Assembly: GCA_041653535.1 (NCBI GenBank)
Contig: JBAZFH010000005.1
Span: forward strand, 12,012 to 76,011
Direction of reading: 5' to 3'
Length of the DNA: 64,000 nucleotides
From: Patescibacteria group bacterium
GTDB lineage: Bacteria; Patescibacteriota; Patescibacteriia; JACRDY01
The notes beneath the pieces were generated by a model. The model had not been told where the DNA came from, searched no databases, and saw only the letters and a program-made list of their open reading frames with translations. Position numbers and translations under genes: made by a program. Below, piece by piece: positions 1 to 57,849 of this stretch; position 1 is the first letter of the stretch; each line of letters begins with the position of its first letter.

Positions 1-414
1 ACCGCGCACTTGGCGCATCATAAACCAAATCAGTCCAATAAACAAAATTAACGGGATAACGAAAGGTAAGATAGTGTTGAGCCAAAAAGTAGCACCGGTA
101 TCGTCCTGTATTTCCAGGGAAAACTTTTGCATTTTTTCTGAAGTGACGCCGTAGTTTTTAAGCATTGTGGAAAAGGAATCTTCTGGTTCTTTTTTTACTT
201 CTTCCTTAGTACCGTCGGAAAGAACTATTTCCAATTTGTCACCCTTGACTATTATTTTACTAACCTGCTCTTGATTGATTTGCTCCACTACTTTTTCCAG
301 TCCGATGGTTTCGACTTTTTTCTGTAAAGGATTTTCTCCCAAACTAAGTATCGCGGCGATAATCAAAAAAACGACAAAAAAGATAATTATACTGCGCGTA
401 AGGTTATTTTTCAT
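1..414 (-). CDS. ftsH: ATP-dependent zinc metalloprotease FtsH, N-terminal part (5' partial; continues beyond window start)
   Basis: Minus-strand ORF running off the window start, with ATG at 412-414. N-terminus has TM1, a periplasmic segment and a second TM helix ending ...ILPFVIPLILFIGLIWFMMRQVRG, which is characteristic of the FtsH membrane anchor. Confidence 0.55.
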   Translation of the reverse strand, partial: MKNNLTRSIIIFFVVFLIIAAILSLGENPLQKKVETIGLEKVVEQINQEQVSKIIVKGDKLEIVLSDGTKEEVKKEPEDSFSTMLKNYGVTSEKMQKFSLEIQDDTGATFWLNTILPFVIPLILFIGLIWFMMRQVRG

Positions 415-4630: not shown

Positions 4631-7183
4631 ATGAAAAAACTTTCCAAGAGAAAACCGATTGGTTCTCCAAAAGATAAAATGCCGGAAGAACAACCAAAAA
4701 ACGCAAAACCGCAAACATTGCCGATAAAAACCGAATCGACTAACGAAGGCAAATTAATGCTGCAACCGCTAGTAGATGAAATGAAGCAATGTTATCTGGA
4801 TTACGCCATGTCGGTTATAGTTTCACGCGCTTTGCCGGATGTTCGTGACGGCATGAAACCAGTCCATCGCAGGATTCTTTATGCCATGTGGACGCTGGGT
4901 CTGCGTCACTCTGCCAAATTCCGCAAATCAGCAACCGTGGTCGGAGAAGTTCTCGGTAATTACCATCCGCATGGTGATGCCGCGGTATATGACTCCATGG
5001 TTCGCTTGGCACAAGATTTTAACATGCGCTATCAGTTAATATCCGGTCAGGGCAACTTTGGTTCGGTAGACGGCGATCCAGCGGCGGCCATGCGTTATAC
5101 CGAGGCCAAGCTTGCTTCTGTTTCCGAAGAACTACTACTGGATATAGAAAAAAATACTGTTAATTTCGTTCCCAACTACGACGGATCAAAAAAAGAACCG
5201 ACCGTACTCCCGGCCAAACTGCCGAATCTACTGCTCAACGGCGGTATGGGCATTGCCGTTGGTATGGCTACCAGTATCCCGCCACACAATCTGACCGAAC
5301 TATGCGACGGCACTGTTGCTGTAATCGACAATCCCAAAATCACTGTCGAAGAATTAATGCAATATATCAAAGGTCCGGATTTCCCTACCGGCGGAACGAT
5401 TTTTAATATTGAAGAAATTAAATCCGCCTATGGCACCGGAAAAGGCGGTATCATAATGCGCGCCAAAAGTGAAATAGTTGAAGAAAGAGGTACTTTCAAA
5501 ATTATTATCACCGAAATTCCTTATCAGGTGAATAAAGCAACCCTGATGGAAAAAATCGCCGATTTGGTCCGTGAAAAAAAGATCGACGCTATAAAAGATC
5601 TGCGGGATGAATCTTCGAAAGAAGGTATTCGCATTGTTATTGAACTAAAAAAAGATTCTTATCCGAAAAAAGTCCTCAATCAGTTATACAAACACACACA
5701 ACTACAAGAAAGTTTTCACGTAAACATGCTTGCTCTAGTCGACGGTATACAGCCGCGAGTTTTGAATTTAAAAATGATTTTGGAAGAATATATAAAGCAC
5801 CGTCAAGAAGTAATCGCCAGACGTACGCAATACGATCTGGACAAAGCCAAAGACCGTGCCCATATTTTGGAAGGTTTGATGATTGCCCTAAACAAAATCG
5901 ATGCGGTGATTAAAGTTATCAAATCGTCAAAAGACAAAGATGTTGCCAAAACTAATTTGATGAGCAAGTTCAAACTGTCCGAACGCCAAGCGGTCGCCAT
6001 TCTGGAAATGCGACTGCAAAATCTGGCAAACCTTGAACAGCTAAAAATTGAAACCGAACTCAAAGAAAAACGCCAGCTGATCAAAGAATTGACCGAGATA
6101 CTCAACTCACCAAAAAGAATTCTAGGTATTATCAAGGGCGAATTAAAAGAAATCAGGGATAAATATGGCGACGAACGCCGAACCAAAATTGTTAACTCCG
6201 CACCGGATAAATTTACCATGGAAGACCTGGTTCCAGACGAAGCGACGATTGTTACCATCACTAAAGACGGCTATATCAAACGCCTTTCTCCGGAAAATTT
6301 TCGCACCCAGTCTCGCGGCGGTAAAGGAGTACTTGGTCTAACTACCAAAGAAGAGGATACCGTCGATCAATTCTTCTCCACCTCTACTCATTCCGACCTG
6401 ATGTTTTTTACCAACAGCGGCAAAGTATTCCAACTCAAAGCCTATGACATCCCGGCTGCTTCCCGCACTGCCAAAGGACAATCGATTGTTAATTTTTTAC
6501 AGCTAACCAGTAATGAAAAAATCACTACCGCACTTTCCCTCAAAGAACTTTCTGATCAAAAATATCTGGTAATGGTTACCAAACACGGCGTGATCAAAAA
6601 AGTAGAAATCACTGCTTTTGAAAACGTCCGCCGCAACGGTCTGATTGCCGTCCGACTCAAAGGTGACGACGAACTGCGCTGGGTCAAATATTCTTCTGGT
6701 AAAGACGAAATAATATTGATGTCATCTGGCGGCCAAGCAATTCGTTTCAAAGAAAACACTATTCGCGCTATGGGTCGCGGCGCTGCCGGAGTCCGCGGCA
6801 TGCGCCTCAAAGGTAATGATGAGATAGTCGGCATGGATGTTGTCAGCGGCAAAACAACCGACGCCGAATTAATGGTGATTATGGAACACGGTTTTGGTAA
6901 GCGCAGTAAACTATCCAACTACAAAGTCCAGGGTCGCGGCGGCTCAGGTATCAAAACCGCCAAAATCACTCCTAAGACCGGAAAAATAGTCATTGGAGAG
7001 ATTATCGACCTCAAGGCTCTACCCGAAACTTCCACCGGTGATGTTGTTGTCGTCTCGGAAAAAGGTCAAGTAATTCGCCTGCCGCTCAAATCAGTACCGA
7101 TTATCGGTCGCGCCACCCAGGGCGTAAGGATTATGAGGTTTAAAGAAGACGGTGATAAAGTAGTTTCAGTTGCCCTAGTCTAA
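4631..7183 (+). CDS. gyrA: DNA gyrase subunit A
   Basis: Active-site region AMRYTEAKL, the QRDR-like stretch [19 protein letters not shown], and C-terminal beta-pinwheel repeats. Confidence 0.95.
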
Positions 7184-7207
7184 ACAAAAAAAAGTAAAAT
7201 AAAAAAA

Positions 7208-7238
7208 TCGCCCTGCATAACACGGGGCGGTTTTTTTA
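7208..7238. terminator. Rho-independent terminator (cgccctgcataacacggggcg + T7), shared by gyrA and the convergent gene
   Basis: GC hairpin followed by TTTTTTT on the plus strand; A-run on the other side allows minus-strand use. Confidence 0.7.
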
Positions 7239-7685
7239 TCATAAAGAAACTTTAATTCGTTTTATTGTTTGATTACTCCCCCGCACATCTATCTTATCAA
7301 CTATCAATTCTTTAGCATGCAGACCAAAATTTTCGATTTTATTAATCTGCTTTTGAATACTGCTATTTGGTTTCAATAATATTAAGACTCCTGTTTCAAA
7401 AACTTTTACATATGCTACCAGACACTGTCCATCTTTTTTTGTCCCTTTTTCTAAGCCAAAAAACGGAGTAGCCAGTAAAACCTCGTCAGCGGCGCTATCC
7501 ATTCCTGCCGCTAGTCGCTCCTCGCTAAAAACTTTATTATCCCAAACCAAATTTTCCTGATGAAAAAGATTGATCGTCGGCGCAACCACAAAATCAGCCG
7601 CTTTTAATATCTCTTCGGCTTCTTGCGAGTCGTACGACTTGCGAAGACTTCCGATTTTTTCTTCTTCCCAAACAGGCACTTCCAT
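7239..7685 (-). CDS. hypothetical protein (148 aa)
   Basis: Clean ORF convergent with gyrA. No obvious SD and no family recognised. Confidence 0.4.
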   Translation of the reverse strand: MEVPVWEEEKIGSLRKSYDSQEAEEILKAADFVVAPTINLFHQENLVWDNKVFSEERLAAGMDSAADEVLLATPFFGLEKGTKKDGQCLVAYVKVFETGVLILLKPNSSIQKQINKIENFGLHAKELIVDKIDVRGSNQTIKRIKVSL

Positions 7686-7735
7686 ATGTATTTATTAAAG
7701 CATTGAAAAAGCAAAAAAGCAAAAAAACCCAGCCA

Positions 7736-7764
7736 TTGACTTTTAACTTAGGTTATGATTAAAT
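7736..7764 (+). promoter_or_regulatory. Sigma70-like promoter (TTGACT-17-TTAAAT) driving the repeat-containing non-coding transcript
   Basis: TTGACT at 7736-7741, 17-bp spacer, TTAAAT at 7759-7764. Confidence 0.45.
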
Positions 7765-7830
7765 TACCTATCCAACAAACTGTAGACGAGGTGAAAGTGG
7801 GCTTATTGAGACATCTTAATACTTGTTTAC

Positions 7831-8200
7831 TTACCTCGTCCCTTCTCTAAAGACTTCCTTGTCAAAGTTTTTAGAGAGGGTAAAAGATGCGCTGCGTAGC
7901 CAAATAAAATAAAAAGCTGGCTGGCGATGTCAATTTTTACCCTCTACCACAATTCAACTCGGGCGAGGCGAAAAGGAGGTTATTAAATCATCATAATGAA
8001 GCATAATCTTTTACCTCGCCCCTTCTCTAAAGATTTTCCACTAAAATTTTTAGAGAGGGTAAAAGAAGTGAAGGATAGTCTAGGAAAGACTGAAAAATGT
8101 AATTTTTTTCCCTCTGCCACAACTTGGCTCGGGCGAGACGACAATGACTGTATTAAATTTACTAACGAACCTCGTCTTATCTCGCCCCTTCTCTCTTTTT
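7831..8200. repeat. tandem repeat, period about 180 bp, 2 full + 1 partial copies
   Basis: Unit 1 at 7831-8010, unit 2 at 8011-8190, partial unit from 8181. Conserved blocks ttacctcg(t/c)cccttctctaaaga, tttttagagagggtaaaaga, tttt(a/t)ccctct(a/g)ccacaa, ctcgggcgag. Confidence 0.8.
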
Positions 8201-8227
8201 TTATTATAAAAACCAATAAATCAACTA

Positions 8228-8258
8228 CCGCCTTGTTCAAAAACAGGCGGTTTTTTTT
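8228..8258 (+). terminator. Rho-independent terminator (ccgccttgtt caaa aacaggcgg + T8)
   Basis: Hairpin followed by TTTTTTTT. Confidence 0.7.
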
Positions 8259-8327
8259 ACGCCAAAGAACCTTACAATCTTGTCAAACTGGTGAATAAAA
8301 ATAAATCGTAAGCATTTAAAATGACAC

Positions 8328-8356
8328 TTGACAATTACTAAAAATTCAGATAAATT
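8328..8356 (+). promoter_or_regulatory. Sigma70-like promoter (TTGACA-17-TAAATT) for the 8446 gene
   Basis: TTGACA at 8328-8333, 17-bp spacer, TAAATT at 8351-8356. The roughly 90-nt leader contains hairpins. Confidence 0.45.
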
Positions 8357-8445
8357 ACCAGCGACCAACATAATGTTGGTGTTCATTTCACCCCATCCTT
8401 TGTGACTAGCCCAAGAGCGCTAGCCACCAAAAAAGGAGATTAATC

Positions 8446-9306
8446 ATGCCAGAATTTAGAGACCATGGAAGACCCCCGCTGATGATCGACAGGTTGGTAG
8501 AGCAAATCAAAGCTACTACCACGCCATTTAAAATGGCGATCGCTCTGATCAAAACCATCAACACTTTAGACGGTCGCACTCCTTCGGAAATATTTTCCAC
8601 CTGGGTAGATTTGGTAAACCACTTCAGCGTCTTAAGTAGAATGAACCAGCATCTATTTCACAGCATAGTATCACCGGGAACCGAAGAAGCGCGTGACCTC
8701 ACCAAAGCATCTCTCGAAGGTCTCTCCCGCCGACTCCGCATACCCACTTCTCATTTAACAGACATTTATTCTGGTCGTGCACGACCTCTGGCAAAAATGG
8801 AAGAGGGTAACCGTTTGATTGTCGAATCATTAATAGACGTCTTTAATCGTAGCTGGAGATGTTATTGGTGGCTCGAAAAACGCGATCAGGCGTATGTTGT
8901 CGAATTTCTGATTGCCGCCCACAACTACTATAACAAACTTGCAAAGAAAGAAAGCTATGACGGCGAATACCTCAAAAAGGTCATTGACACGCTAATGAAG
9001 TGCGGTCAATGGGGACTCTTCCGGCAAAATAACAAGGTCTACTTGATTCCTCAAATATTTTATCTTTTGAACCCAACGGCTCAATTACAGTGGAGTGATT
9101 GGAGTCGGCTGACTGACGGCGGTTCAGGGTTGGCTAAAAACGACAAAAAAACGATCAAAAATGATATTGATTTAATCCTGGCTACGGCTGGTGAAGCACT
9201 TAGCGTAGAAATATCCCGTACCGATTTATATGATTCGGAACAGGAAAACGCCGCCCAGACATTACTGTATCTCATCGCCGTAGTATTTTTTAGGAACGCT
9301 TTATAA
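8446..9306 (+). CDS. hypothetical protein (286 aa)
   Basis: ORF preceded by an AAAAGGAG SD and followed by the terminator at 9314-9342. No family recognised. Confidence 0.55.
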   Translation: MPEFRDHGRPPLMIDRLVEQIKATTTPFKMAIALIKTINTLDGRTPSEIFSTWVDLVNHFSVLSRMNQHLFHSIVSPGTEEARDLTKASLEGLSRRLRIPTSHLTDIYSGRARPLAKMEEGNRLIVESLIDVFNRSWRCYWWLEKRDQAYVVEFLIAAHNYYNKLAKKESYDGEYLKKVIDTLMKCGQWGLFRQNNKVYLIPQIFYLLNPTAQLQWSDWSRLTDGGSGLAKNDKKTIKNDIDLILATAGEALSVEISRTDLYDSEQENAAQTLLYLIAVVFFRNAL

Positions 9307-9313
9307 CATCCGA

Positions 9314-9342
9314 ACCCCGCTTCAACCAAAGCGGGGTTTAAT
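9314..9342 (+). terminator. Rho-independent terminator (ccccgcttcaaccaaagcgggg ttt)
   Basis: Hairpin plus T-run. Confidence 0.6.
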
Positions 9343-9421
9343 CTTGCCAAAAACAATAAAATCATATATATTACTTGCAGTTTTTCCTAACCACTAACTA
9401 CTAATCACTAACCACTATATT

Positions 9422-9640
9422 ATGACAATTCCAGCCAAACGTAGACCAAAATCAAAAACTAGGATGGGGCGATCTCACCAAGCCCTCAAAGGCATTACCC
9501 TGGGTAAATGTCCGAAATGTAAAAAACCGATGCTACCTCACCGCGCCTGCGGTTATTGCGGATATTATAAAAACAGAGAAATAGTCAAGGTTAAAACCAA
9601 ACTTGCCAAGTCTAAAAATAGCAAGGCCGAGGAAAAATAA
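9422..9640 (+). CDS. rpmF: 50S ribosomal protein L32
   Basis: MTIPAKRRPKSKTRMGRSHQALK...CPKCKKPMLPHRACGYCGYY matches the bL32 signature and its zinc ribbon. Confidence 0.85.
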   Translation: MTIPAKRRPKSKTRMGRSHQALKGITLGKCPKCKKPMLPHRACGYCGYYKNREIVKVKTKLAKSKNSKAEEK

Positions 9641-9651
9641 AATAAAAAAAT

Positions 9652-10131
9652 ATGTCTAGCCGACACTTAAGTCGCACCGTAGCCATGCAAACCCTTTATC
9701 AATGGGATTTTAGCGGTTGCAAAGATGACGTAAAAAGCATTTTGGAACACAATTTGTCCGAAATCGCTCCCGGTATGGAGGATTATAGTTTCCCGGAAAA
9801 TATTATTAATGGCGTGCTGAAGAACCAAAAAGAAATTGATAAGCTAATCGTCAAATTTGCTCCCGAATGGCCGTTGGAAAAAATCACTATTGTCGACCGG
9901 AATATTTTGCGTATCGGCATATACGAACTAAAGTTTGACCCGGAAATCCCAGCCAAAGTCGTGATCAATGAAGCAATCGAAATAGCCAAAACTTTCAGCG
10001 GTGAAAGCAGCGGCAAGTTTGTCAACGGAGTCCTCGGAGCCATATATAAAGAAATGGGCGAAAAACACACCCCCAACGATACCAAAGAAAACGAAAACAA
10101 AGAAACTAAGACCGAGGAAGTTAAAACCTAA
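9652..10131 (+). CDS. nusB: transcription antitermination factor NusB
   Basis: [15 protein letters not shown] at the N-terminus and FVNGVLGAI at the C-terminus, as in NusB. Confidence 0.8.
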
Positions 10132-10236
10132 GGAAACAAAATAACTTTAAAAAATAATCTCTGCCCAAATACCAGGATACCGGAAAATAAAAAAAGCCGA
10201 TGTCCCGATATTTTGACAGGTGGACGTAATGACTTT

Positions 10237-10926
10237 ATGAAACTACTTTCCCGTCTGGAAAAAAACATAGGTACCTCTTTCAAAAACCAAGATTTGCTTA
10301 AACAAGCCTTGGTTCATCGGTCATATCTCAATGAAAATCCGGGTTTTAGCCTCGATCACAATGAACGCTTGGAATTTTTAGGTGATGCTGTTTTGGAGTT
10401 AGTGGTTACCGAACATCTTTATAATAATTATCCCAACCCCGAAGGAGAACTGACTACCTGGCGCGCCTCGCTGGTAAACGCCAAAATGCTGGGTGGCATA
10501 GCAAAAAAACTGGAAGTGGAAGACTATCTTTTTCTGTCTAAAGGAGAATCAAAAGACAAAAATTCCAAAGCCAGGGATTATATTTTGGCCAATGCCTTTG
10601 AAGCTATCACCGGCGCTATTTACCTGGATGGTGGCTACGAAGCGGCAAAAAAATTCATTGACGAAAAAGTATTGCCGGAACTACCGGAAATTTTGGATAA
10701 AAAACTTTACGTTGACCCAAAATCACGTTTTCAAGAAGCAGCTCAAGAACACGCGGGGATTACCCCACACTACGAAGTAATACAGGAAACCGGTCCCGAT
10801 CACGCCAAAAAATTTGTTGTCGGAATATTTTTGGATAAGGAAAAAATAGCACAGGGAGAAGGTATGTCCAAACAAGAAGCCCAGGAAAATGCCGCGCTGG
10901 CAGGGTTGGAAGTAAAGGGCTGGTAA
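10237..10926 (+). CDS. rnc: ribonuclease III
   Basis: RNase III signature ERLEFLGDAVLELVVTEHLY plus a C-terminal dsRBD. Start at the ATG (MKLLSRLEK) behind an AGGTGGA SD; the track ORF starts at an upstream TTG. Confidence 0.9.
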   Translation: MKLLSRLEKNIGTSFKNQDLLKQALVHRSYLNENPGFSLDHNERLEFLGDAVLELVVTEHLYNNYPNPEGELTTWRASLVNAKMLGGIAKKLEVEDYLFLSKGESKDKNSKARDYILANAFEAITGAIYLDGGYEAAKKFIDEKVLPELPEILDKKLYVDPKSRFQEAAQEHAGITPHYEVIQETGPDHAKKFVVGIFLDKEKIAQGEGMSKQEAQENAALAGLEVKGW

Positions 10927-11021: not shown

Positions 11022-11122
11022 GGGGTGTTAGCTCAATGGTAGAGCAGTTGCCTCTTAAGCAATTGGTTAGAGGTTTGTCCCTTCGGGACATCTCCCGTAG
11101 GGAGACAAATCCTCTACATCCA
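11022..11122 (+). tRNA. tRNA-Lys(CUU)-like gene carrying a 32-nt insertion inside the T-loop and a degenerate 3' acceptor strand; possibly a pseudogene or an intron-like insertion
   Basis: Identical to the intact tRNA-Lys copy through the anticodon arm. The T-arm reads AGAGG-TT[tgtcccttcgggacatctcccgtagggagaca]AATCCTCT. The insert folds into two hairpins, one with a C(UUCG)G tetraloop. The 3' end ACATCCA mispairs with GGGGTGT. Confidence 0.4.
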
Positions 11123-39808: not shown

Positions 39809-39837
39809 GCAGGATACAGGATACCGGATACAGGATT
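39809..39837. repeat. (ACAGGAT)n-like heptamer repeat, 3-4 units
   Basis: gcaggatacaggataccggatacaggatt. Confidence 0.7.
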
Positions 39838-39860
39838 AAAATACACACATAAGGAAACAC

Positions 39861-39914
<54 letters not shown>

Positions 39915-41339: not shown

Positions 41340-41729
41340 AAATTAGTAGCTAGTGGCTAGCGACTAGCAACTAGTGACTGGCGATTTTTACTGCCAGCTA
41401 CCAACTGCCAGCTACCATTTTCTGTCCCTATTCTATGTAAAATTTAGGTAAAAGTCAATTTAAAAAATTTTAGTTAGTGTAAAAAATGGGCTAATTTGAC
41501 ACATTTATCTTTATATTTTATATCAAAAAACGCTATTGACAAAGATTGTCTAACTTGGTAGGCTGCTATGATAAATAGAATTTTGACAATTAAAATAAAG
41601 AATTGAAAAATGGAGGTGAAAAAGATAGTAGTCTGGCTTATTTAGAGCCAAAACTTTGTTCGTGCGTGTTCTTACAATATGTTCAGTGTCCAACTCCAAC
41701 AACCCATTCATGTACAAGGAGAAAGAAAA

Positions 41730-42947
41730 ATGTCCGATGACACCAAGAAAACCGACGGAATCACCAATGTCGCCGCTGCCACCGCACCGACCTATCCGCC
41801 CGCTTGGACGGAACGCGTCGGCAAGTTCGCCGACCTCGTCGGCAAGAAACTCGAAGACGTGACCACCGCCCTGGCCGATGTCGCCGGCGCCGCCGGTGAT
41901 GACGCCCTGGCCGTGCTCGCGGACGAAGCGAGCTCGCCTTTCGACGATCTCAAGAACGCTCTCGCGTCCCTGAAGATCCCGTCCGGCGTCCTGCGCAAAA
42001 ACGTCGCGATCCTGCGCGGTCCCAAACCCGAAGCTCCCGCCGCCACTCCCGCCGCCGGCCCGTCTTTCGACGTGCTGCCGAGCGTGCCCGGTGACGACGC
42101 CAGTTTTCTCGAGCTGCTGAAAGTCGGCGGCATCCTGAAGATCGGCTCGACCGAGGTCATCTCGGCGATGAAGGCCGCCTTGGCCAATCGCCTCGACATG
42201 TTCAAGCTGCCGAAGAAAATCATGGAAGCCATGGAACGCTTCGCCGAAGACCAGGAAGAACCCTGCGGCGAAAGCTACTACAAGCTCCAGGATCTCGTCA
42301 CCCGTCGCAGCTACGCGGAAGTTTTGTCCGCCCTGGGCGTCAAGGGTCACCTGGTCAGCGAGAGCCGCAAGAACGAGCTCCTCGGCAAGACCGACCTGCT
42401 CTGGCCGGCCCTGCAGAGCTTCCACGAACAGCTGATCAACTGGCAGACCGCCTGGACTCAGGGCGCCAATCCGACCATGATGTTCGCGGCGATCGCGTCC
42501 ATGGCCAGCGGCGGCAACTCGATGATGCCTCCGGGAATGATGCAGCCCCCCGACACCGCCGGTCTCCGCGACGCGGCCGAAGGCGTGATCAACAAGATCA
42601 ACAAGGTCTTCGCCGGTCACGGCATTCCGATCGCGCGAGCGCTCGCCTATGACGCCACGCAGATTCGTGCCCTTCTCGAAGAGCCGACGCTGCCGACGCA
42701 CATGGGCGTCGCCAACCGCGAACAGATGATCAAGATGCTGGGCGTGTCTGTTTCCGCAGATCTGCTCCGCCTCGAACGCAACGTCTGCCGCTACGCGCTG
42801 GCGGTCATGGAACTGCCCAAGATCCCGTCCGGTCAAAGCGAATACGGCTACCTCGGCGCCATGATCCAGCTCGGTATCCAGATCCCCTGGGACACGCTGC
42901 TTTCCGGCTCCAGCGCCACCGCTCGCCCGGGTCGCAAACCCTTCTAA
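41730..42947 (+). CDS. hypothetical Ala-rich protein (406 aa), first gene of the GC-rich island
   Basis: Strong GC3 codon bias in this frame and an AAGGAGAAAG SD. The antisense 516-aa ORF (41550..43100) is an artefact of high GC. Terminator at 42971-43005. Confidence 0.6.
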   Translation: MSDDTKKTDGITNVAAATAPTYPPAWTERVGKFADLVGKKLEDVTTALADVAGAAGDDALAVLADEASSPFDDLKNALASLKIPSGVLRKNVAILRGPKPEAPAATPAAGPSFDVLPSVPGDDASFLELLKVGGILKIGSTEVISAMKAALANRLDMFKLPKKIMEAMERFAEDQEEPCGESYYKLQDLVTRRSYAEVLSALGVKGHLVSESRKNELLGKTDLLWPALQSFHEQLINWQTAWTQGANPTMMFAAIASMASGGNSMMPPGMMQPPDTAGLRDAAEGVINKINKVFAGHGIPIARALAYDATQIRALLEEPTLPTHMGVANREQMIKMLGVSVSADLLRLERNVCRYALAVMELPKIPSGQSEYGYLGAMIQLGIQIPWDTLLSGSSATARPGRKPF

Positions 42948-43036
42948 TTCCACCAACCTCATCAACCTAAAGGGCAGGGAGCAATGCTCCTTGCCCTTTT
43001 TTTTCGACAACCGCACAACTAAAAAAGGAGATATTA

Positions 43037-44068
43037 ATGAGCGGAAACAACTATAGCGACTATCGTAGTCGCGGTATCGCCTATAGCGGCTTTGCCTCAA
43101 GCGATGAGCGCGAAAGGAAAAAAGCAGAAAAACTGCGCGCCGAACGCGTCGAGAAAGCCAAGGAGACGGTGCACGAAAAAAGCACCAAGGCGCGCCCCAA
43201 ACGTGAAGACAACGCCGTCTATGACGACAAGCTGGTGCGCCTTGGCATCACCAAACCGAAACCCGGCGTCAAACGCGTCTACGTCATCTATATCGACAAC
43301 AGCGGCTCCAACCGAGTCATCGCCGCCCATTTGCGGAAAAGCTCGGCCTGGCTGCTGTCTCTTCTGAAGATGCTCGACCCGGAAGCGCAAATCGCTTTCG
43401 TCTATTTTTCCGACCACACCGACGGCAGTCAGTTCACGCAGGAAGTCGATTTCGTCTCCCCCGACGAAGAGGGCGACAAGATCATGTTCTCGACGATTTC
43501 CCATATCAGCGCCGCCAACGGTTTCGATGTGCCGGAAGCGCACGAATGCGCGCTCAAAGCCGCTTGCGAGATCAACTTCGGCGGCGCGGTCGAAAAGCAT
43601 CTGATCATGATCAGCGACGTCGTTGGCCATGGCATGGGCATGCCCTTTGATGACGGTTGCCCGGCTCAGCAAAGCTGGAAAAAATCCGTCGAGCTGGTCG
43701 CCAAGACCTACGACACTTTCCATTTCATCGGCTGCGGCGACGATGCCGAGGTCTGTGAGTTGCAGCAGCAGTTCATCTCTGACCCGAAACGAGTCCCCTG
43801 GGATCTGATCGACCTGTCGATGGTCAAAGACGAGCAGCACCGCATGCGCATCACCGGCAACGCCATCATGTTCCTCATTGCCCGCCAACTCGGTCGGCAA
43901 GCCATGGAAATGTTCCTCGGCTTCCTCTACGAGAAATGGCTCGACGATCCGATTTTTGGCGAAGCTACCGACGCGCGCGCCCAGGAAATGATTCGACGCT
44001 TCACCAAATATCTGGAATGGCCGGAAACCGAAATCGAAGACATGCTCAAGAAAGTCTTCGTCCAATAA
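43037..44068 (+). CDS. von Willebrand factor A (vWA) domain protein, TerY-like
   Basis: MIDAS-like IYIDNSGSN (DxSxS) after a basic N-terminal region. AAAGGAG SD. Terminator at 44085-44122. Confidence 0.6.
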   Translation: MSGNNYSDYRSRGIAYSGFASSDERERKKAEKLRAERVEKAKETVHEKSTKARPKREDNAVYDDKLVRLGITKPKPGVKRVYVIYIDNSGSNRVIAAHLRKSSAWLLSLLKMLDPEAQIAFVYFSDHTDGSQFTQEVDFVSPDEEGDKIMFSTISHISAANGFDVPEAHECALKAACEINFGGAVEKHLIMISDVVGHGMGMPFDDGCPAQQSWKKSVELVAKTYDTFHFIGCGDDAEVCELQQQFISDPKRVPWDLIDLSMVKDEQHRMRITGNAIMFLIARQLGRQAMEMFLGFLYEKWLDDPIFGEATDARAQEMIRRFTKYLEWPETEIEDMLKKVFVQ

Positions 44069-44143: not shown

Positions 44144-46426
44144 ATGAGTGACCGCCAGTTGCTTACTCGACTCCTCGCTGCGACCAAAAAAGGTGGCGGA
44201 CTGGAGTCTTTGCGCGACGCGCTGGAACAAATTGTTTTTGCCGACGAAGCAGAAAAAAACCACGCCACCAAACTAGTGGCTGTCGCCCACCTTACTGCCT
44301 TTCACGCGCAACCGCAAGAACTGGTCCACGCCATCCCGCTGCTAGCAAAAATCAACGACTGGGAAACGCTGCAAACGATCCTAAAAATCGGTCACGACTA
44401 TGGTCGGCTCGACCTGGTACAAAGCATCGACCAAATTGGTCGGCAAAAAAATCTGCCGGCGTTACAAGTTACGGACTTTGCCGAGTGGATGCAAAATTTT
44501 TCCATCTACTGGATTGACCTGTGTTATGACAAAAAAAACAATCTGGTTTTTGTCGATCTGCAGTACGAAAAGATTCTACGGCAAACAATCGCCGAAAACT
44601 TTGAGCCGCCGCTTTTCTGGTCTAATGTACTACTGCAGCTGGACCTGCAAAAACATTTGTCCCCCGAAAGAAAAATAATCTTGGCCAAATTGGCCGCAGG
44701 GCAAAACCCCGTCTGCCGGCCATTCACCGAACATCGACAAAATGTCTATAAGCGATTTGGCGAGTATTGCGAAAACAACGACTTGGAAATTGTTAAAACT
44801 TTGCAAGTCGGTATCGAAAGCTCTCGTCGCTGCAGCTACGTTTATCTGGTTCGCGACACTGACGGTATCATGAAGGTCTACAAAGAAATTCTTGACTACC
44901 GCCGCGGTCCGTTGGCCGAAAGCTACGACAGCGAAGACGAACTCTATGAAACGATTGGTCAAAACGATTTTCTGCCGGCGTACCTTGCCACGGTAATCGT
45001 CGATAAAGATTTACGCTTTGCCAAATTGGAATTCCAGTACGCTCAAAGTCTGGCTGACTATCTGCGCGACGGCGAACCGCTGGAAAAAAATCTGGCGATC
45101 CGCATCATGCTGCAGCTAGCCAAAAACCTGAAACGACTCCATCGGCGCAATATCATTTTCCTGGATCTCAAACCGGAAAACGTGGCGCTGACGGATCAAG
45201 ACGTTAAGCTTTTTGACCTGGGTGTTTCCCGCCAAATTAAATCGACGGATAAAATCAACGCTTTTCTCGCCGATCCGCGCTATGGCACGCCAGAAACCGG
45301 TCTGGAACTAACAGCGTCTACCGCTTCGGACGTGTTCCAGCTGGGAATAATTTTCCACCAACTGTTGACCGGTTATCACCCGTTTGCTTTTGAAGGAACG
45401 ACCGACAATCGGGAAGAACAAATCTTGCGCTACTTCTGGCCAACAGTGGTTCTTCCCTACGAGCACGATCTGGCAGTAAAACTACGAGACGATCGGCTGA
45501 AAATCATCAACGCGATGTTGGACAAAAATCCGGCGCTGCGCCCCGGTCTTGAACAAATAATCGCAACGCTAGAAGAAGGAGAACAAACCGCCGTCACAAC
45601 CCAAGCAGCACAGAGAAAAGACACCAGACTAGAAGAAAACAATACAGTGCTTTTCCCGGCACGCATGGGTATTCCCCATAAAGGACACATCGAGTACATC
45701 TCACGGCTGTTGCAACTAGGATTTCACGTTACGATTTCCTTGCAGCGCAGCTACACTATCACTGACCGCGATCCGTTACCTAAATGGCTAGTAGCCAAAA
45801 TGGTAGCTAGATCCCTACTCGATCGTGGATTTACACCCGATGACTTCGATTTTATTTTCACACCGCTGTACAAAGAACGTCGAGAGATGGAAATCCATTT
45901 TGCGATGCTGCCGTCGGCGGAAAATATTGTCGCTGTTGCTTCTAGCAATCTGAGCGTCCACGATCTTTTTTCGCGATACGCCATCTTTGATCAAAAAACG
46001 GTCTTTGGTAGCGCTGGCGAGGAATTCGAAGATCGTTCGTGGGGAGAGATCATTCGCGGAGCAGTAAAAAACAACGACTACCAAAAATTTTCCGAGTATG
46101 CGGCCAGCGGCGTAGAAAAAATCTTGCCGTTGGACCAAATCCGAAAAATCTACGGCAGTCCAAATATCGAATTCGTCAGCGGATCAGTCAATCTGGTTTT
46201 GCTCGACGAAAACGACCAAGAAATCGCTTCCGGAAGAGCTTTCCGTTTCGTTGGACCAGAAATAAGTCTGCTGCGCCATTTAGTGCGTGCTGGACATGAG
46301 GTCGAGTTAATCGATCCTTACGCCAATGACACGCTCGTCAAAATCGACGGACAGACCAAACATCTGAAATACCTCCGGACCGAATTTTCGGCCGGAAATG
46401 AATTCATTTATTTCCAAAGCGTCTAG
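44144..46426 (+). CDS. multidomain protein: N-terminal unknown domain + Hanks-type Ser/Thr protein kinase domain + C-terminal HxGH nucleotidyltransferase (cytidylyltransferase-like) domain
   Basis: Kinase catalytic loop IIFLDLKPENVAL, DLG (KLFDLGVS), GTPE. C-terminus FPARMGIPHKGHIEYI is the (T/H)xGH nucleotidyltransferase signature. Confidence 0.65.
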   Translation: MSDRQLLTRLLAATKKGGGLESLRDALEQIVFADEAEKNHATKLVAVAHLTAFHAQPQELVHAIPLLAKINDWETLQTILKIGHDYGRLDLVQSIDQIGRQKNLPALQVTDFAEWMQNFSIYWIDLCYDKKNNLVFVDLQYEKILRQTIAENFEPPLFWSNVLLQLDLQKHLSPERKIILAKLAAGQNPVCRPFTEHRQNVYKRFGEYCENNDLEIVKTLQVGIESSRRCSYVYLVRDTDGIMKVYKEILDYRRGPLAESYDSEDELYETIGQNDFLPAYLATVIVDKDLRFAKLEFQYAQSLADYLRDGEPLEKNLAIRIMLQLAKNLKRLHRRNIIFLDLKPENVALTDQDVKLFDLGVSRQIKSTDKINAFLADPRYGTPETGLELTASTASDVFQLGIIFHQLLTGYHPFAFEGTTDNREEQILRYFWPTVVLPYEHDLAVKLRDDRLKIINAMLDKNPALRPGLEQIIATLEEGEQTAVTTQAAQRKDTRLEENNTVLFPARMGIPHKGHIEYISRLLQLGFHVTISLQRSYTITDRDPLPKWLVAKMVARSLLDRGFTPDDFDFIFTPLYKERREMEIHFAMLPSAENIVAVASSNLSVHDLFSRYAIFDQKTVFGSAGEEFEDRSWGEIIRGAVKNNDYQKFSEYAASGVEKILPLDQIRKIYGSPNIEFVSGSVNLVLLDENDQEIASGRAFRFVGPEISLLRHLVRAGHEVELIDPYANDTLVKIDGQTKHLKYLRTEFSAGNEFIYFQSV

Positions 46427-47489: not shown

Positions 47490-48602
47490 ATGGACATTGA
47501 CCTGCAAAGGGTATACGACATTATTTTTGGCTCGGTGCGAGCTGAAGACGTATTTGGCGATCTTATTGATCGTCAAAACAAAACGTCCAAAGAACAGTTG
47601 TTGGAAGCCGTTTACGCCGACCTGGCCGCAATCGTTGATCCAAAAAAGTACACCTATCCGGATGACCGAGAATTTGCCGCTGATGCCCAGTTCAAACTGA
47701 AAACTTTCTACGAGAAAGCCAAGGAAAAACTGGCCAGCGGATTCTATGGCGCGACCGCCAATCCCAGTATCCATGTCTCTCGCGGACGACCAGCTTTTGC
47801 AACCGAAAAAAGATCGTACTACCTTGGTCAACCAATCGCCGAAGGCGACATAGCCACCATTTATGTTGGCGACTGCGTCATGGGCGATGACTTTGCTGGC
47901 CGCGTGGCGATTAAAATCGTCAACGATCCGGCTGACAACGACCTGGCCCGCAACGAGATCCGGGCTCTGACCGAGCTGCACTCCAAAAAAGGCGCTCAAC
48001 GCAAACATCTGCCGATACTGCTCGACAATTTTTTGACTGAAGACGACCAAGTTGGTTTGGTGTTTCGATTCTTAGACGATAGCTACGATCTGCTGGCCGT
48101 TAAGGAAAAATATCCTCGCGGCGTTGATCGCAAGCATATGGTCTGGATGCTCAACCGGCTACTGTCTGCTGCTGGCTATGCCCACAACTGGGGCATGGTC
48201 CACGCTAACATCGAGCCGAGCAACCTGATGGTTCGTCCACAAAACCACAATCTGTTCATGATCGACTGGACCAGTGCGGTGATCCGACCGGCCGAAACCG
48301 GCGACACTTTCAAAGTCTACAACCCTGAATTTAGCGCGCCGGAAGTCAAAGAAGGAGGTCCTGCAACACCAGCTTCGGACTTATATTCGATTGGCAAGTG
48401 CATGATCTATATCCTCGGCGGCAATGTCGAAGACAATACCATGCCCGACACAGTCGAAGAAGAACTCCAACGCTTTATCCATTTCCTGGTTTTGGAAAGT
48501 CAGGGTGGACGAGCGCAAGATGCCTGGAAAATGCATCATAAACTCATCTCTTTAGTCGAAGGACTTTGGGGACCAAGAAAATTTCTGGTCTTCAGCATGT
48601 AA
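47490..48602 (+). CDS. protein-kinase-like protein with degenerate catalytic loop (HAN in place of HRD)
   Basis: VAIK present (RVAIKIV). HANIEPSNLMV replaces HRDLKPEN. DWT replaces DFG. SAPE and DLYSIGKCMIY are conserved. Confidence 0.55.
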   Translation: MDIDLQRVYDIIFGSVRAEDVFGDLIDRQNKTSKEQLLEAVYADLAAIVDPKKYTYPDDREFAADAQFKLKTFYEKAKEKLASGFYGATANPSIHVSRGRPAFATEKRSYYLGQPIAEGDIATIYVGDCVMGDDFAGRVAIKIVNDPADNDLARNEIRALTELHSKKGAQRKHLPILLDNFLTEDDQVGLVFRFLDDSYDLLAVKEKYPRGVDRKHMVWMLNRLLSAAGYAHNWGMVHANIEPSNLMVRPQNHNLFMIDWTSAVIRPAETGDTFKVYNPEFSAPEVKEGGPATPASDLYSIGKCMIYILGGNVEDNTMPDTVEEELQRFIHFLVLESQGGRAQDAWKMHHKLISLVEGLWGPRKFLVFSM

Positions 48603-48638
48603 CCAAAAACCACCAGACAAACAAAAAGGAGAAGTATC

Positions 48639-50117
48639 ATGGGTGGAGGCGGTGATCATTATGAACGCGACGTAGACATGAATGCGCGCCGACGGCAGGT
48701 CGAACAACATTTCGAGCAAGTAACCAAACCCAAGCCGCCGGAAGAACGCAAAGTCGCGGCAACTCTTGATCCCAAAAAGATCGAAAAGTTGGTCAGCGAC
48801 GACAGCGAAGAATACCCCGAAACAACTTCAATCGCCGTGATTATGGATCTGACCAGATCGCGCGGCAAGGACCTGATCGACATCTTGACCAAGATGCCGC
48901 TGCTGATGGGTCAAGTCATGCTGGAAGGCTACGTGCGTAATCCGGCCATCAGTTTTTGCGGTGTTGGCGACGCCACTGACGGCGACGCCGCTCCTCTGCA
49001 AGTCGGTCAGTTTGAAACCGACGACCTGATCGACAGAGTCTTGCAAGCGATGTGGCCCGAAGGTGGCGGTGGTGGCAGCGGGCAAGAATCCTACCAGCTG
49101 GCGGCGTACATGTACGCCATCAAAGCCGAGCTCGCTTCGCTCAAAAAGCGCAACCAGAAAGGCTACCTTTTTATAATCGGTGATGAGGGTTTCTACCCGA
49201 AAGTTTCGAAAGACGAAGTTAAACGCGTCATCGGCGCCTCCATTCCCAAAGACATTCCTTCGGCGGAAATTTTCCGACTGCTCCAAGAAAAATTCAACGT
49301 CTTCTTTATCTACCCGGCCAAGTCCTGGGAGGAACGCAAAGAAGACATCGACGAAGAAATCGCCGCCCGTGTCCGCAAGGCCGGCGGTATGATCGAAGGT
49401 GTCGATATACGATTCTCGCTAGCCTGGTCCAATCGCAACGATCTGGATTTGCACGTCATCGATCCCGACGGCTTCGAGATCTACTACGGCAGCAAGGTTT
49501 CCCGCAGCGGCGGCATGCTCGATGTCGACATGAACGTCCACGGCGAGACCACCAAGCCAGTCGAAAACACCCGCTGGGCCAAAGGCAAAGCGCCCAAAGG
49601 CACGTATCGAGTCTTTGTCCGAAACTACGGCTTCCACGAAAACACCCGCGCCGCTACGCCATTCCGAGTCGAAATCGAAATCGGCGGTGAGGTAGAGCAC
49701 TTCGAAGGCAAGACTCCGGCCAACTCCTCCGGTGCAGGTAGTGATGTCGAGGTCGGAACCTTTACCTTCGATCCCCAGAAGGTCAGAGCAAAAGACGGCG
49801 ATGAAAAATACGCCGGCTACAGAGACAATGTTGTGTTGACTCAGTGGGGCAGCGTGATCCCGCAGGAAAACATTCTGCGGTTAAAAAACCCCAAAGCCAT
49901 CGTCGACGCGATGCTCGGCGTACTGGCTATTTGCAGCGGTAGCCGCACGTTGCCGGCCTACCTGCAAGACATGAAAAACCGCGGTCAGACAGTCACGCGA
50001 ATCAAAGAAATTGAAACTTCGCTTGACGGACTGGCTCAAGTCGCGAACACACCGAAAGTGACAATCCGCAGCACCGGCGGCGGCAAGACTCGCAAGAGCG
50101 GCGCTACCCGAATCTAG
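48639..50117 (+). CDS. vWA domain protein with Gly-rich linker and C-terminal beta-rich domain of unknown function
   Basis: MIDAS-like AVIMDLTRSRG (DxTxS). GGGGGSG linker. C-terminal ...LHVIDPDGFEIYYG...MLDVDMNVHG.... Confidence 0.6.
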   Translation: MGGGGDHYERDVDMNARRRQVEQHFEQVTKPKPPEERKVAATLDPKKIEKLVSDDSEEYPETTSIAVIMDLTRSRGKDLIDILTKMPLLMGQVMLEGYVRNPAISFCGVGDATDGDAAPLQVGQFETDDLIDRVLQAMWPEGGGGGSGQESYQLAAYMYAIKAELASLKKRNQKGYLFIIGDEGFYPKVSKDEVKRVIGASIPKDIPSAEIFRLLQEKFNVFFIYPAKSWEERKEDIDEEIAARVRKAGGMIEGVDIRFSLAWSNRNDLDLHVIDPDGFEIYYGSKVSRSGGMLDVDMNVHGETTKPVENTRWAKGKAPKGTYRVFVRNYGFHENTRAATPFRVEIEIGGEVEHFEGKTPANSSGAGSDVEVGTFTFDPQKVRAKDGDEKYAGYRDNVVLTQWGSVIPQENILRLKNPKAIVDAMLGVLAICSGSRTLPAYLQDMKNRGQTVTRIKEIETSLDGLAQVANTPKVTIRSTGGGKTRKSGATRI

Positions 50118-50186: not shown

Positions 50187-50212
50187 ACAGGATACAGGAG
50201 ACAGGATACAGT
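50187..50212. repeat. (ACAGGAK)n heptamer repeat, 3.5 units
   Basis: gacaggatacaggagacaggatacag. Confidence 0.75.
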
Positions 50213-53390: not shown

Positions 53391-54058
53391 AGCTTAAGTA
53401 AGCAAGATGACCGCCCCCCACTTTCTATGTTTTATGTCTACATTTTAAAAAGCCAAAAAGACGACAAGCTTTATATTGGCTTTACTAGTGACTTAAAACG
53501 CAGATTTCAGGAACACCAAAATAAAGAGAATAAATCGACAAAAAACAGAACTCCTTTTATTTTGGTCTACTACGAATCCTATCGTTCAAAATCAGACGCG
53601 ATGAAACGGGAGAAAAATTTAAAACAGTTTAAAAACAGCTACTCTCATCTAAAAAAGCGTCTTGGCGATAGCCTTAAAACATAGAAAATGGGGGGAGGAA
53701 AGTCCGAACACCCCTCTGGCTGTAAAGCTAGAGTGACAAAGAGAGTCGCTAACGGCGACCGGGAGTAATCCTAGGGAAAGTGTCACAGAGACAATACTAT
53801 CCCCCACATATTATGTGGGGGACAAAGGTGAAAAGAGAAAAGGTGTATTTTTAGAAAATCATATGATTTCTAAAGACTGCTACTTTTCTTCCTCTTGGGC
53901 GACCAAGATGTGATGGTAAACCCTCTCTGGTGCAAGAGCCAATTTGGTTGCTCGCTTGATCCTGTCAGCAATGGCAGGACTAGATAGATGGTCATCCTCC
54001 CTCACATAATTTATGTGGGGGATGACAGAATTCGGCTTACCAGCTTGCTTAAGCAATA
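53391..54058 (+). ncRNA. rnpB: RNase P RNA (bacterial) with a roughly 270-nt insertion in P3 that encodes a GIY-YIG protein
   Basis: P4 5' strand GGAGGAAAGTCCG at 53695-53707. GGGAAAGTGTCACAGAGA (P10/11 region). 3' ACAGAATTCGGCTTA...CTTGCTTAAGC pairs with the 5' GCTTAAGTAAGCAAG as P1. Terminator at 54059-54093. Confidence 0.7.
53427..53684 (+). CDS. GIY-YIG domain protein (UPF0213-like, 85 aa) encoded within the P3 helix insertion of rnpB
   Basis: MFYVYILKSQKDDKLYIGFTSDLKRRFQEH is a GIY-YIG motif. The start codon sits in the 5' strand, and the stop codon in the 3' strand, of a 13-bp extended P3 stem (tttctatgtttta/taaaacatagaaa). Confidence 0.7.
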   Translation: MFYVYILKSQKDDKLYIGFTSDLKRRFQEHQNKENKSTKNRTPFILVYYESYRSKSDAMKREKNLKQFKNSYSHLKKRLGDSLKT

Positions 54059-55385: not shown

Positions 55386-56375
55386 TTAAACCAACCCAAC
55401 AATCTCTCTCACCTCCGCCATAGTTTGACTAGCAATCTTTTGCGCGGTAGCGGCTCCCTCTGTCATTACCTTGTCGACATATTTACTATCTTTTTCTAAC
55501 TTTTTCCGGCGATCACGAAAGTCTTTAAAATAATTAGCGATATCATCGGCTAACTGCGCTTTGAACTCACCAAACTTTATCTTCTTTTGCTCTTTTTGTT
55601 TAAAGAAGTATTCTACCGTGTCGGGATGAGAAAAATTTTCGAGGAGTAGTAGTAGGTTGGTACCACCGACCGATTCTCCACTACCTTCGTCAGACACCGC
55701 GCGACTCAATTTCTTTTTGATTACTTCCGGGTCGTCGTTGATACCGATACAATGATTTTCACCCAAACTTTTACTCATCTTTTTCTCTGGAGTGAGCAGG
55801 CTCATTATTTTTGGAGTGTTAGTCAATACTTCTTTTGGCTCAGCAAAATAATCAGTCTTATACTTTTGGTTAAACTTGCGAGCCGCCAGACGAGTCAGCT
55901 CAACATGCTGTACCTGGTCTTGACCCACCGGCACTGCCAAAGCGTGATAAAGCAAAATATCAGCCGCCTGCAAAACGGGATAGTCAAAAAGACCCATGTT
56001 AATATTTGCTTTTTGTCGAGCTGCTTTGTCTTTAAACTGTGTCATCCTTTCCAGCTCCGCTACTGGCAATAAAGTATTAAAAATCCAAGCAAGCTCGGTA
56101 TGACCAGTTACTTGTGACTGAAGAAAAATCGTCGATTTACTCGGATCGATACCAGCTGCCAAATAATCCATGATCAACCCTCGAGAACGAGCGCGAAGCT
56201 GCTCCGGATCACTATTTTCTGTCATTGCATGGTAGTCGGCAATAAAGAAAAAACATTGATATTTGGAGCTGTTTTGCAATTCAACAAAGTTTTTGAGCGA
56301 ACCGAGATAATTGCCCACGTGCAGTTCGCCACTGGGTTGAATACCGGAAACTATGATTGGTTTGATTGTTTTCAT
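55386..56375 (-). CDS. trpS: tryptophanyl-tRNA synthetase
   Basis: PSGELHVGNYLG (HIGH-type), KMSKS, and the overall TrpRS pattern. Start at MKTIKPII; the upstream extension of the track ORF runs into the repeat array. Confidence 0.9.
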   Translation of the reverse strand: MKTIKPIIVSGIQPSGELHVGNYLGSLKNFVELQNSSKYQCFFFIADYHAMTENSDPEQLRARSRGLIMDYLAAGIDPSKSTIFLQSQVTGHTELAWIFNTLLPVAELERMTQFKDKAARQKANINMGLFDYPVLQAADILLYHALAVPVGQDQVQHVELTRLAARKFNQKYKTDYFAEPKEVLTNTPKIMSLLTPEKKMSKSLGENHCIGINDDPEVIKKKLSRAVSDEGSGESVGGTNLLLLLENFSHPDTVEYFFKQKEQKKIKFGEFKAQLADDIANYFKDFRDRRKKLEKDSKYVDKVMTEGAATAQKIASQTMAEVREIVGLV

Positions 56376-56400
56376 ATGTTTTAATTTTAGCTTTAATTCC

Positions 56401-56580
56401 TCCCCCTGCCAAGGGGGAGATGTCGCGAAGCGACAGAGGGGGTGAATGCGACTCCCTGCCAAGGGGGAGATGTCGCGAAGCGACAGAGGGGGTGAATGCG
56501 ACTCCCTGCCAAGGGGGAGATGTCGCGAAGCGACAGAGGGGGTGAATGCGACTCCCTGCCAAGGGGGAGTCGCTTCCTGT
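56401..56580. repeat. 50-bp GC-rich tandem repeat, 3.6 copies, in the trpS 5' leader
   Basis: Unit tccctgccaagggggagatgtcgcgaagcgacagagggggtgaatgcgac. Contains hairpins ctccc-tgccaag-gggag and gtcgc-gaa-gcgac. Sits between the T-box terminator and the trpS SD. Confidence 0.85.
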
Positions 56581-57775: not shown

Positions 57776-57849
57776 GAAAAACAGAAAACCCCGCTCACTC
57801 GAAACGGGGTTATTTTTAAATTCTAACCACTAACAACTAACCACTACCC

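Follow-up and report, generated by a model that had tools for sequence, protein, structure and literature searches.

CsrB/RsmZ-type sponges are stand-alone transcripts of several hundred nucleotides (nt) in which one binding element is repeated and many GGA motifs are carried in hairpin loops. Sibling small RNA (sRNA) genes (PrrF1/PrrF2, LhrC1-5, NsiR1) are tandem duplicates with diverged loops and conserved cores, each with a promoter and a terminator. OLE, GOLLD, ROOL, HEARO and raiA are strongly folded noncoding RNAs (ncRNAs) of several hundred nt and unknown function; to our knowledge they have many homologues with supported covariation and no internal tandem modularity. Type III toxin-antitoxin (TA) loci, which frequently occupy variable or mobile regions, have antitoxin arrays (ToxI, CptI, TenpI) of tandem direct repeats of 31-62 nt in 1.9-5.6 copies (PMC3401426). 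RCd22 is a structured ncRNA with two copies of the abiF motif that adjoins an AbiF (Abi_2) gene and neutralizes the protein by direct binding (PMC12373285). Here we describe a locus with partial likeness to each of these, found in a 64,000-nt stretch of contig JBAZFH010000005.1 (the window) from a Patescibacteria group bacterium. The element lies at 7736-8258 on the + strand, where an initial annotation had proposed a novel structured ncRNA. We would give an even chance to the reading that 7772-8258 (+) is a stand-alone, lineage-specific gene for a structured ncRNA, with its own promoter and terminator and built of tandem modules, that is a candidate for multivalent protein binding. A functional ncRNA at this site is a well-supported candidate and not a demonstration. 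The parts of the proposed gene are the following.

7736-8258, + strand: region of interest, from promoter to terminator.
7736-7765, + strand: promoter P1, with −35 TTGACT at 7736-7741, an 18-nt spacer and −10 TAAATT at 7760-7765.
7772-8258, + strand: predicted ncRNA transcript, about 487 nt.
7783-7959, + strand: module M1, with hairpins A1 (7785-7840), B1 (7841-7880) and C1 (7875-7945) and linker ACCACAATTCAACTC (7946-7960).
7960-8129, + strand: module M2, with hairpins A2 (7961-8021), B2 (8021-8059) and C2 (8054-8115) and linker GCCACAACTTGGCTC (8116-8130).
8131-8194, + strand: partial module M3, with hairpin A3 (8131-8187) and an unpartnered B 5′ arm CCTTCTCT (8187-8194); hairpin C is absent.
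8195-8226, + strand: AU-rich tail from M3 to the terminator, predicted to be unpaired in the M3 fold.
8227-8258, + strand: intrinsic terminator, with a GC-rich stem at 8227-8250 (ACCGCCUUGUU / AACAGGCGGU) containing one bulged U, and U8 at 8251-8258.

Like the CsrB/RsmZ RNAs, the candidate is a stand-alone promoter-to-terminator transcript that repeats one element; unlike them it has only 3 GGA motifs, all in M2 and at non-equivalent positions, its conserved element is a helix junction, and it has no Rfam match. With OLE, GOLLD, ROOL, HEARO and raiA it shares an ornate, strongly folded transcript, and it differs from them as a singleton made of tandem modules that matches no Rfam family. Tandem sibling sRNAs likewise consist of duplicated units at one locus, whereas here P1 and one terminator are the only such signals on the + strand for all modules.

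The consensus-like promoter of the initial annotation was recovered as TTGACT-18-TAAATT at 7736-7765. The pattern TTGACN-16..18-TANWWT occurs at only 10 sites in the 64 kb on both strands (128 kb of strand), and these include P1 and a downstream promoter, P2, with which P1 has the −10/discriminator TAAATTACC in common. Transcription from P1 is inferred to start at about 7772. The strong terminator was likewise confirmed as a bulged stem followed by U8; a simple terminator scan overlooked it because of the bulged U in the stem. There is no + strand protein gene upstream of this terminator for it to serve. The approximately 490 nt were also correctly described as lacking a credible open reading frame (ORF). 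A 100-aa ORF is present at 7996-8298 (+) and was judged not to be a real gene: it has no Pfam match, it passes through the terminator, its ATG lies 16 nt after AGGAGG, which is a poor spacing, and the paralogous M1 has no + strand ORF of at least 30 aa between 7851 and 7995. A leader peptide, judged from the sequence with no dedicated test, was rejected as well, the Shine-Dalgarno (SD) sequence and AUG in M1 opening only 6 codons and not being kept in M2.

The region comprises two full modules and one partial module, and the earlier description of 2.5 tandem copies (of a unit of ~175 nt) agrees with the direct-repeat families, which are spaced by 180, 179, 170 and 166 nt and are 76-89% identical. 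TRF gave no report of a 170-180 nt period because the overall identity is too low. The claim of at least two hairpins per module was right as to their presence and low as to their number, which is three (A, B and C), with B and C overlapping by 6 nt. Hairpin A has a GC-rich base of 8-9 bp whose sequence varies by copy and a long AU-rich distal stem. Hairpin B is 16-17 bp long, with an invariant base formed by CCUUCUCUAAAGA... and ...UUUUUAGAGAGGG, and hairpin C has an invariant base, AGAGGGUAAAAG / UUUUUACCCUCU, and a variable interior. The linker that follows hairpin C is conserved as RCCACAAYU...CUC. The arms of the junction helix at the base of hairpin A are the following.

7785 and 7833: A1 arms GACGAGGT and ACCTCGTC.
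7961 and 8014: A2 arms GGGCGAGG and CCTCGCCC.
8131 and 8180: A3 arms GGGCGAGA and TCTCGCCC.

The M3 interior also contains ACCTCGTC, at 8169-8176, identical to the A1 3′ arm. The A1 5′ arm (7785-7792) could alternatively pair with 8169-8176 and so close the whole RNA by a long-range helix, or the internal copy may instead be a trace of unequal crossing-over.

The whole region (497 nt) folds on the + strand with −153.7 kcal/mol (z = −8.47, 0/100 shuffles as stable), and the − strand fold has z = −3.56. The + strand minimum free energy (MFE) fold contains 19 G-U among 153 pairs, and each B helix has 2 invariant G-U pairs; in duplex DNA or in a fold of the opposite strand, such pairs would be replaced by A-C mismatches. 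All hairpins are more stable than their shuffles, with z-scores of −6.3, −4.9 and −3.0 for A1, A2 and A3, −5.1 and −5.0 for B1 and B2, and −4.6 and −2.7 for C1 and C2.

The helix bases and the interiors of M1 and M2 differ in their conservation. The A 3′ arm and B 5′ arm are identical at 20/21 positions, the shared B 3′ arm / C 5′ arm at 20/20, and the C 3′ arm plus linker at 20/26. In the A interior, B top and C interior, identity falls to 47-55%, equal to the shuffled expectation (45-49%), in line with the loop divergence noted at first. Since the interiors have fallen to shuffle-level identity with the helix bases intact, the duplication must be old enough to have saturated the unconstrained positions, and neutral decay of a duplication would not be expected to give this contrast of intact cores and saturated interiors. 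Although their sequence identity is at shuffle level, the A interiors retain significant folding (z = −3.3 and −2.5).

The junction helix of hairpin A had been reported to change sequence between copies while staying complementary. Its arms were found as described, and with the three copies in register 2 pairs are changed on both sides and 1 of 24 cells is unpaired. Two positions of this helix show G-C to A-U exchanges, which adds a second compensatory position. A 35-pair model of M1 and M2 is paired in 98.6% of its cells. Seven of its pairs differ between the modules, of which 4 are double changes that kept pairing, 2 went to wobble and 1 is broken (RNAalifold agrees); controls in which the partner column was slid gave 0-1 double changes. 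In total, 5 helix positions, in helices A and B, are changed on both sides with pairing kept. Together with the intact cores, we read these changes as signs of purifying selection on RNA helices.

A DNA-level or non-functional explanation would account for part of this pattern. The repeats could be operator- or iteron-like sites, for example for neighboring orphan proteins, or a duplicated relic of a mobile element, with no functional RNA made. In favor of this explanation, the element is a singleton lacking homologues, its B arms make up an invariant near-palindrome of 13 bp that precedes a gene, the cores could have been held alike by gene conversion, and symmetric half-site changes can mimic compensatory change. 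We nevertheless regard this explanation as unlikely, for the G-U pairs are mismatches in DNA and folding is strongly strand-asymmetric. The A and C arms are 40-50 nt apart and overlapping, unlike operators, the promoter and terminator bracket the region exactly, and saturated interiors beside intact helices argue for selection on pairing. There are moreover no dispersed copies in the window. Five other identities were rejected. A replication origin or DnaA boxes were set aside on the monotonic cumulative GC skew (no dedicated test was made), and a REP, MITE or dispersed minisatellite on the lack of a second copy within 64 kb. On a reading of the sequence, a pyrimidine-motif triple helix would have the wrong strand polarity, NusB boxA is a poor match, and a CRISPR or attC array would have a different architecture.

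What goes beyond the earlier description of the ncRNA candidate is the overlap of hairpins B and C at AGAGGG and the two near-isoenergetic registers that the fold models predict from it. These 6 nt (AGAGGG) belong both to the 3′ arm of B and to the 5′ arm of C, and helices B and C abut with no spacer. The arms lie within a core that is the same in both full modules.

7868-7887, + strand: shared core TTTTTAGAGAGGGTAAAAGA (B 3′ arm / C 5′ arm) in M1.
8047-8066, + strand: the identical 20-mer in M2.

Constrained folds of M1 gave −33.1 kcal/mol for the B-long and −36.3 kcal/mol for the C-long register (within 3.2 kcal/mol), and those of M2 gave −25.5 and −26.2 kcal/mol (0.7 apart). As the registers are close in energy, one purine tract is contested by two pyrimidine tracts in each module, and each module may toggle between a B-long/C-short and a B-short/C-long register. 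A requirement for AGAGGG to remain complementary to two partners simultaneously would be expected to keep the B and C bases invariant, as they are. In the whole-transcript MFE fold the unpartnered third CCUUCUCU arm is paired with the M2 purine tract, and this arm could join the B/C contest.

Searches for relatives of the RNA returned none. Rfam at gathering thresholds over the whole window gave no match in the region, and at E <= 10 over 7600-8500 it gave only chance-level matches (for example L20 leader and mir-320) of 15-23 bits against thresholds of 37-100. None of the Rfam families tested, which included riboswitches, 6S, SRP, tmRNA, ribozymes and OLE/GOLLD/ROOL/HEARO, matches the region, and ARAGORN found no tmRNA. 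We built a covariance model (CM) of the module from M1 and M2 and ran it with filters off. Its scores of 205.7 bits for M1 and 192.8 bits for M2 are high by construction, these being the model's own two sequences; it also recovers M3 (8130-8272, 23 bits, E = 1e-4). Neither pattern search nor nhmmer --max nor the CM found a further copy in the 64 kb, so that the alternative raised at the outset, a scattered minisatellite, finds no counterpart within the window.

The initial annotation had also proposed an Infernal homology search in related genomes. The best non-self matches of the window's GyrA, at 74-78% identity, belong to Falkowbacteria- and Buchananbacteria-like metagenome-assembled genomes (MAGs). 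In six such relatives neither nhmmer nor the CM with filters off found the module. Larger scans demanded 20-22 exactly conserved bases, and diverged homologues would escape them. Among genome representatives the exact-motif scan gave 1 match, a hairpin in a Moraniibacteriota MAG without A or C hairpins or repeats, which we judged non-homologous. Metagenome contigs gave 29 single matches, near our chance estimate, none of them the CTCTAAAG/CTTTAGAG hairpin, and four scans of viral contigs gave 0-52 chance matches with no extended similarity by nhmmer. Blastn of phage and plasmid collections returned nothing, and the literature turned up no described equivalent. The same population is present in at least 2 other samples, as an identical 5.5-kb contig and as a 2.1-kb contig with one single-nucleotide polymorphism that ends short of the RNA; neither contig adds RNA variation. 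Samples SRR18595300 and JGI 3300014205 contain this population, and 3300013123 and 3300013138 contain relatives.

The RNA lies between gyrA and rpmF, next to two orphan ORFs.

4631-7183, + strand: gyrA, which has its own hairpin at 7199-7239.
7239-7685, − strand: 148-aa orphan ORF, divergent from the RNA and belonging to the same lineage-specific islet.
8328-8356, + strand: promoter P2, TTGACA-17-TAAATT, a 10/12 match to consensus, serving the 286-aa ORF.
8446-9306, + strand: 286-aa orphan ORF, 3′ of the RNA on the same strand.
9422-9640, + strand: rpmF.
9652-10131, + strand: nusB.
10213-10926, + strand: rnc.
From 10932, + strand: tRNAs.

The interval from gyrA to rpmF-nusB-rnc (7184-9421 in the window) is a hypervariable insertion slot in this Patescibacteria clade, with unrelated cargo in every relative examined. 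The flanking orders S1 ... Lactamase_B_3-hyp-gyrA and rpmF-nusB-rnc are kept in the relatives, two of the six having contigs that end short of rpmF. The cargo between gyrA and rpmF/nusB differs among them (adenylosuccinate lyase, glutamine synthetase, a 94-aa ORF, or a mostly uncharacterized gene run). In our window the RNA, the 148-aa ORF and the 286-aa ORF form a 2.1-kb lineage-specific islet (about 7239-9340) in this slot, each of the three members appearing to be a separate transcription unit. The homologue search with the 148-aa ORF returned itself alone, and the 286-aa ORF had no homologue in a word-index search or among 1.84 billion representatives. Neither had any Pfam, NCBIfam, PADLOC, PHROGs or PDB signal.

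Two observations connect the 148-aa gene with the modules. Within M1, on the minus strand, lies a promoter-like site directed at this gene (TTGACA-16-TATTTT, 7933-7906), which could yield an antisense transcript or a long 5′ untranslated region overlapping M1. Within the ORF itself, a 16-nt stretch at 7520-7535 is 15/16 complementary to the B1 3′ arm (7864-7879). The 148-aa mRNA thus carries a near copy of the B1 3′ arm and may be able to base-pair with the RNA at its B 5′ arms, or the match may be due to chance.

A trans-acting base-pairing sRNA would make use of such complementarity. Its CU-rich arms (CCUUCUCU three times, CCCUCU twice), chiefly the unpartnered 3′ one, would pair with purine-rich, SD-like mRNA sites, and the internal AGAGAGGG tracts would serve as auto-inhibitory mimics. 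An unpaired CU-rich tract followed by an AU-rich tail and a terminator is a layout typical of Gram-positive sRNAs, and the candidate has such a tract directly 5′ of its AU-rich tail and terminator, with the 15/16 copy of the B 3′ arm in the 148-aa mRNA as a conceivable partner. On the other side, AGAGARGG occurs in the 64 kb only inside the RNA and once antisense to RNase P RNA, which leaves no visible targets, the chance expectation of the 15/16 match in 2.3 kb of AT-rich sequence is ~0.03-0.1 by our own rough estimate, and 490 nt and three-fold modularity would be needless for a seed-type sRNA. We consider this role improbable.

The position of the RNA ahead of the 286-aa ORF raises the question of a long cis-acting leader or attenuator, in which transcription from P1 would pass a regulated terminator into the ORF. 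The gene is on the same strand and close by, and the alternative pairings of B and C are reminiscent of switch elements. The terminator 5′ arm, however, has no complement upstream, so that no antiterminator is apparent in the folds, and the B/C toggle lies more than 110 nt from the terminator. With P2, a 10/12 consensus match, standing between terminator and ORF, and no riboswitch or leader family matched in Rfam, we find a cis-acting leader very hard to credit.

The layout of the locus resembles that of type III TA and abortive-infection systems, a reading in which the RNA array would be the antitoxin and the 286-aa orphan the toxin, possibly an RNase, that cuts the array into units that neutralize it. 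As in type III arrays, a single promoter, a short RNA repeat array, a Rho-independent terminator and a same-strand protein gene follow one another, the arrangement by which type III loci are defined (PMC3401426). The copy number of 2.5 falls within the published 1.9-5.6 (PMC3401426), and the locus sits in a hypervariable islet with orphan genes. RCd22/AbiF, which resembles the candidate as a structured RNA with a repeated motif beside a protein gene, provides a precedent for longer, two-motif structured RNAs that can neutralize a toxin (PMC12373285). The differences are substantial. The unit here is ~175 nt with three hairpins, as compared to 31-62 nt (PMC3401426), and the repeats are only about 77% identical. 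The 286-aa protein has no PADLOC, Pfam, NCBIfam or PHROGs match and is therefore not ToxN/AbiQ, CptN, TenpN or Abi_2, the last also without a match at E <= 10. No Rfam family, the abiF motif included, matches at E <= 10, and module size and architecture differ from those of RCd22. The toxin candidate also has its own promoter, P2, within a terminator-to-ATG gap of 188 nt. A type III-like or abortive-infection system thus seems unlikely to us. We think it somewhat less likely still that the RNA serves as antitoxin or inhibitor in a previously unseen RNA-protein module, its ~175-nt toggling units neutralizing, or being processed by, the 286-aa protein as a long-repeat analogue of type III TA in a CPR (candidate phyla radiation) hypervariable slot. 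The term antitoxin-like is used here for an analogy and a rival, not as a classification.

In the explanation we favor, that of a stand-alone structured ncRNA, a Patescibacteria (CPR) chromosome would express an RNA of ~490 nt from its own sigma-70-type promoter, closed by a constitutive intrinsic terminator. The RNA would have arisen through tandem duplication of a ~175-nt module that now stands at 2.5 copies, with selection keeping the helix bases and the three-strand competition as loops and distal stems drifted to randomness. By presenting the same B/C junction 2-3 times it would bind a protein partner multivalently, in the manner of a sponge or an antitoxin. The most economical candidate for this partner is the 286-aa orphan protein encoded directly downstream in the same islet. 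A change of B/C register could be brought about by the third CCUUCUCU arm, which lacks a pairing partner of its own. An invariant helix junction that is repeated, with the rest free to drift, appears to be better explained by such a multivalent platform than by a riboswitch or a seed-type sRNA.

Several points weigh against this explanation. The candidate is an orphan with no homologue in the collections searched, and its conservation is paralogous only, with n = 2-3. The covariation, coming from 2-3 paralogous copies, is suggestive rather than significant, and shuffle controls matched what was observed in 25/500 and 59/500 trials. Identical cores could also result from gene conversion between repeats, and the folding of the C interiors falls short of significance (z = −0.5 and −1.6). 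The protein-binding step is entirely conjectural. Neither orphan protein has a recognizable RNA-binding or toxin domain, and their fold comparison was ruled out by poor single-sequence AlphaFold2 (AF2) models, both unusable (confidence score pLDDT 43 and all-helical for the 286-aa protein, pLDDT 38 for the 148-aa protein). Its own strong promoter, P2, and the 188-nt gap mean that the 286-aa gene is not coupled to the RNA by read-through, as type III toxins are. The original proposal of a novel structured ncRNA is partly supported: the strand-specific fold and the compensatory changes agree with it, it is novel in having no Rfam match, the covariation is suggestive, and no homologues were found.

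Elsewhere in the window we observed other repeats and atypical segments. At 56404-56569 a 50-bp unit that contains hairpins (CCCCCTGCCAAGGGGG, GTCGCGAAGCGAC) stands in 3.3 copies without a mismatch among them and has no Rfam match. The array lies immediately upstream (minus strand) of a class-I Trp/Tyr tRNA-synthetase ORF (55386-56462) and may reflect recent expansion or an error of assembly, or may be a leader element. Heptamer micro-arrays are found among 39810-39914, 9387-9417, 57823-57846 and 50187-50211: CCTGTCT x7.7 (100% matches) beside CAGGATA x3.9, ACAGGAT x3.6, and CTAACCA, with one array (x4.4) in the rpmF 5′ leader and another (x3.4) at 57823. GC content is 0.59 at 42001-44000 and 0.53 at 48001-50000, as compared to about 0.42 in the remaining window, and high-GC long ORFs without Pfam match (41679-42947, 43037-44068 and 48639-50117) flank a Ser/Thr protein kinase (44144-46426). 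Between tRNA-Arg and tRNA-Lys, a 61-nt Rfam tRNA match (11022-11082, 33.4 bits, just over threshold) with no ARAGORN call may be a truncated or unusual tRNA. The bacterial class A RNase P RNA (53654-54055, 164 bits) has a 42-nt insertion relative to the model.

The reduced genomes of Patescibacteria/CPR are thought to be poor in regulatory RNA. The co-occurrence of the RNA with two orphan genes in this variable slot between gyrA and rpmF points to a self-contained accessory module, TA- or defense-like, without a known protein family. Such a module would be a lead for new RNA-protein biology, its reach limited by the singleton status of the RNA. The design of the RNA would be unusual if true: several modules, every one with its own near-isoenergetic register shift between abutting helices. 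If transcribed and functional, it would join a very short list of candidate regulatory RNAs from Patescibacteria/CPR.

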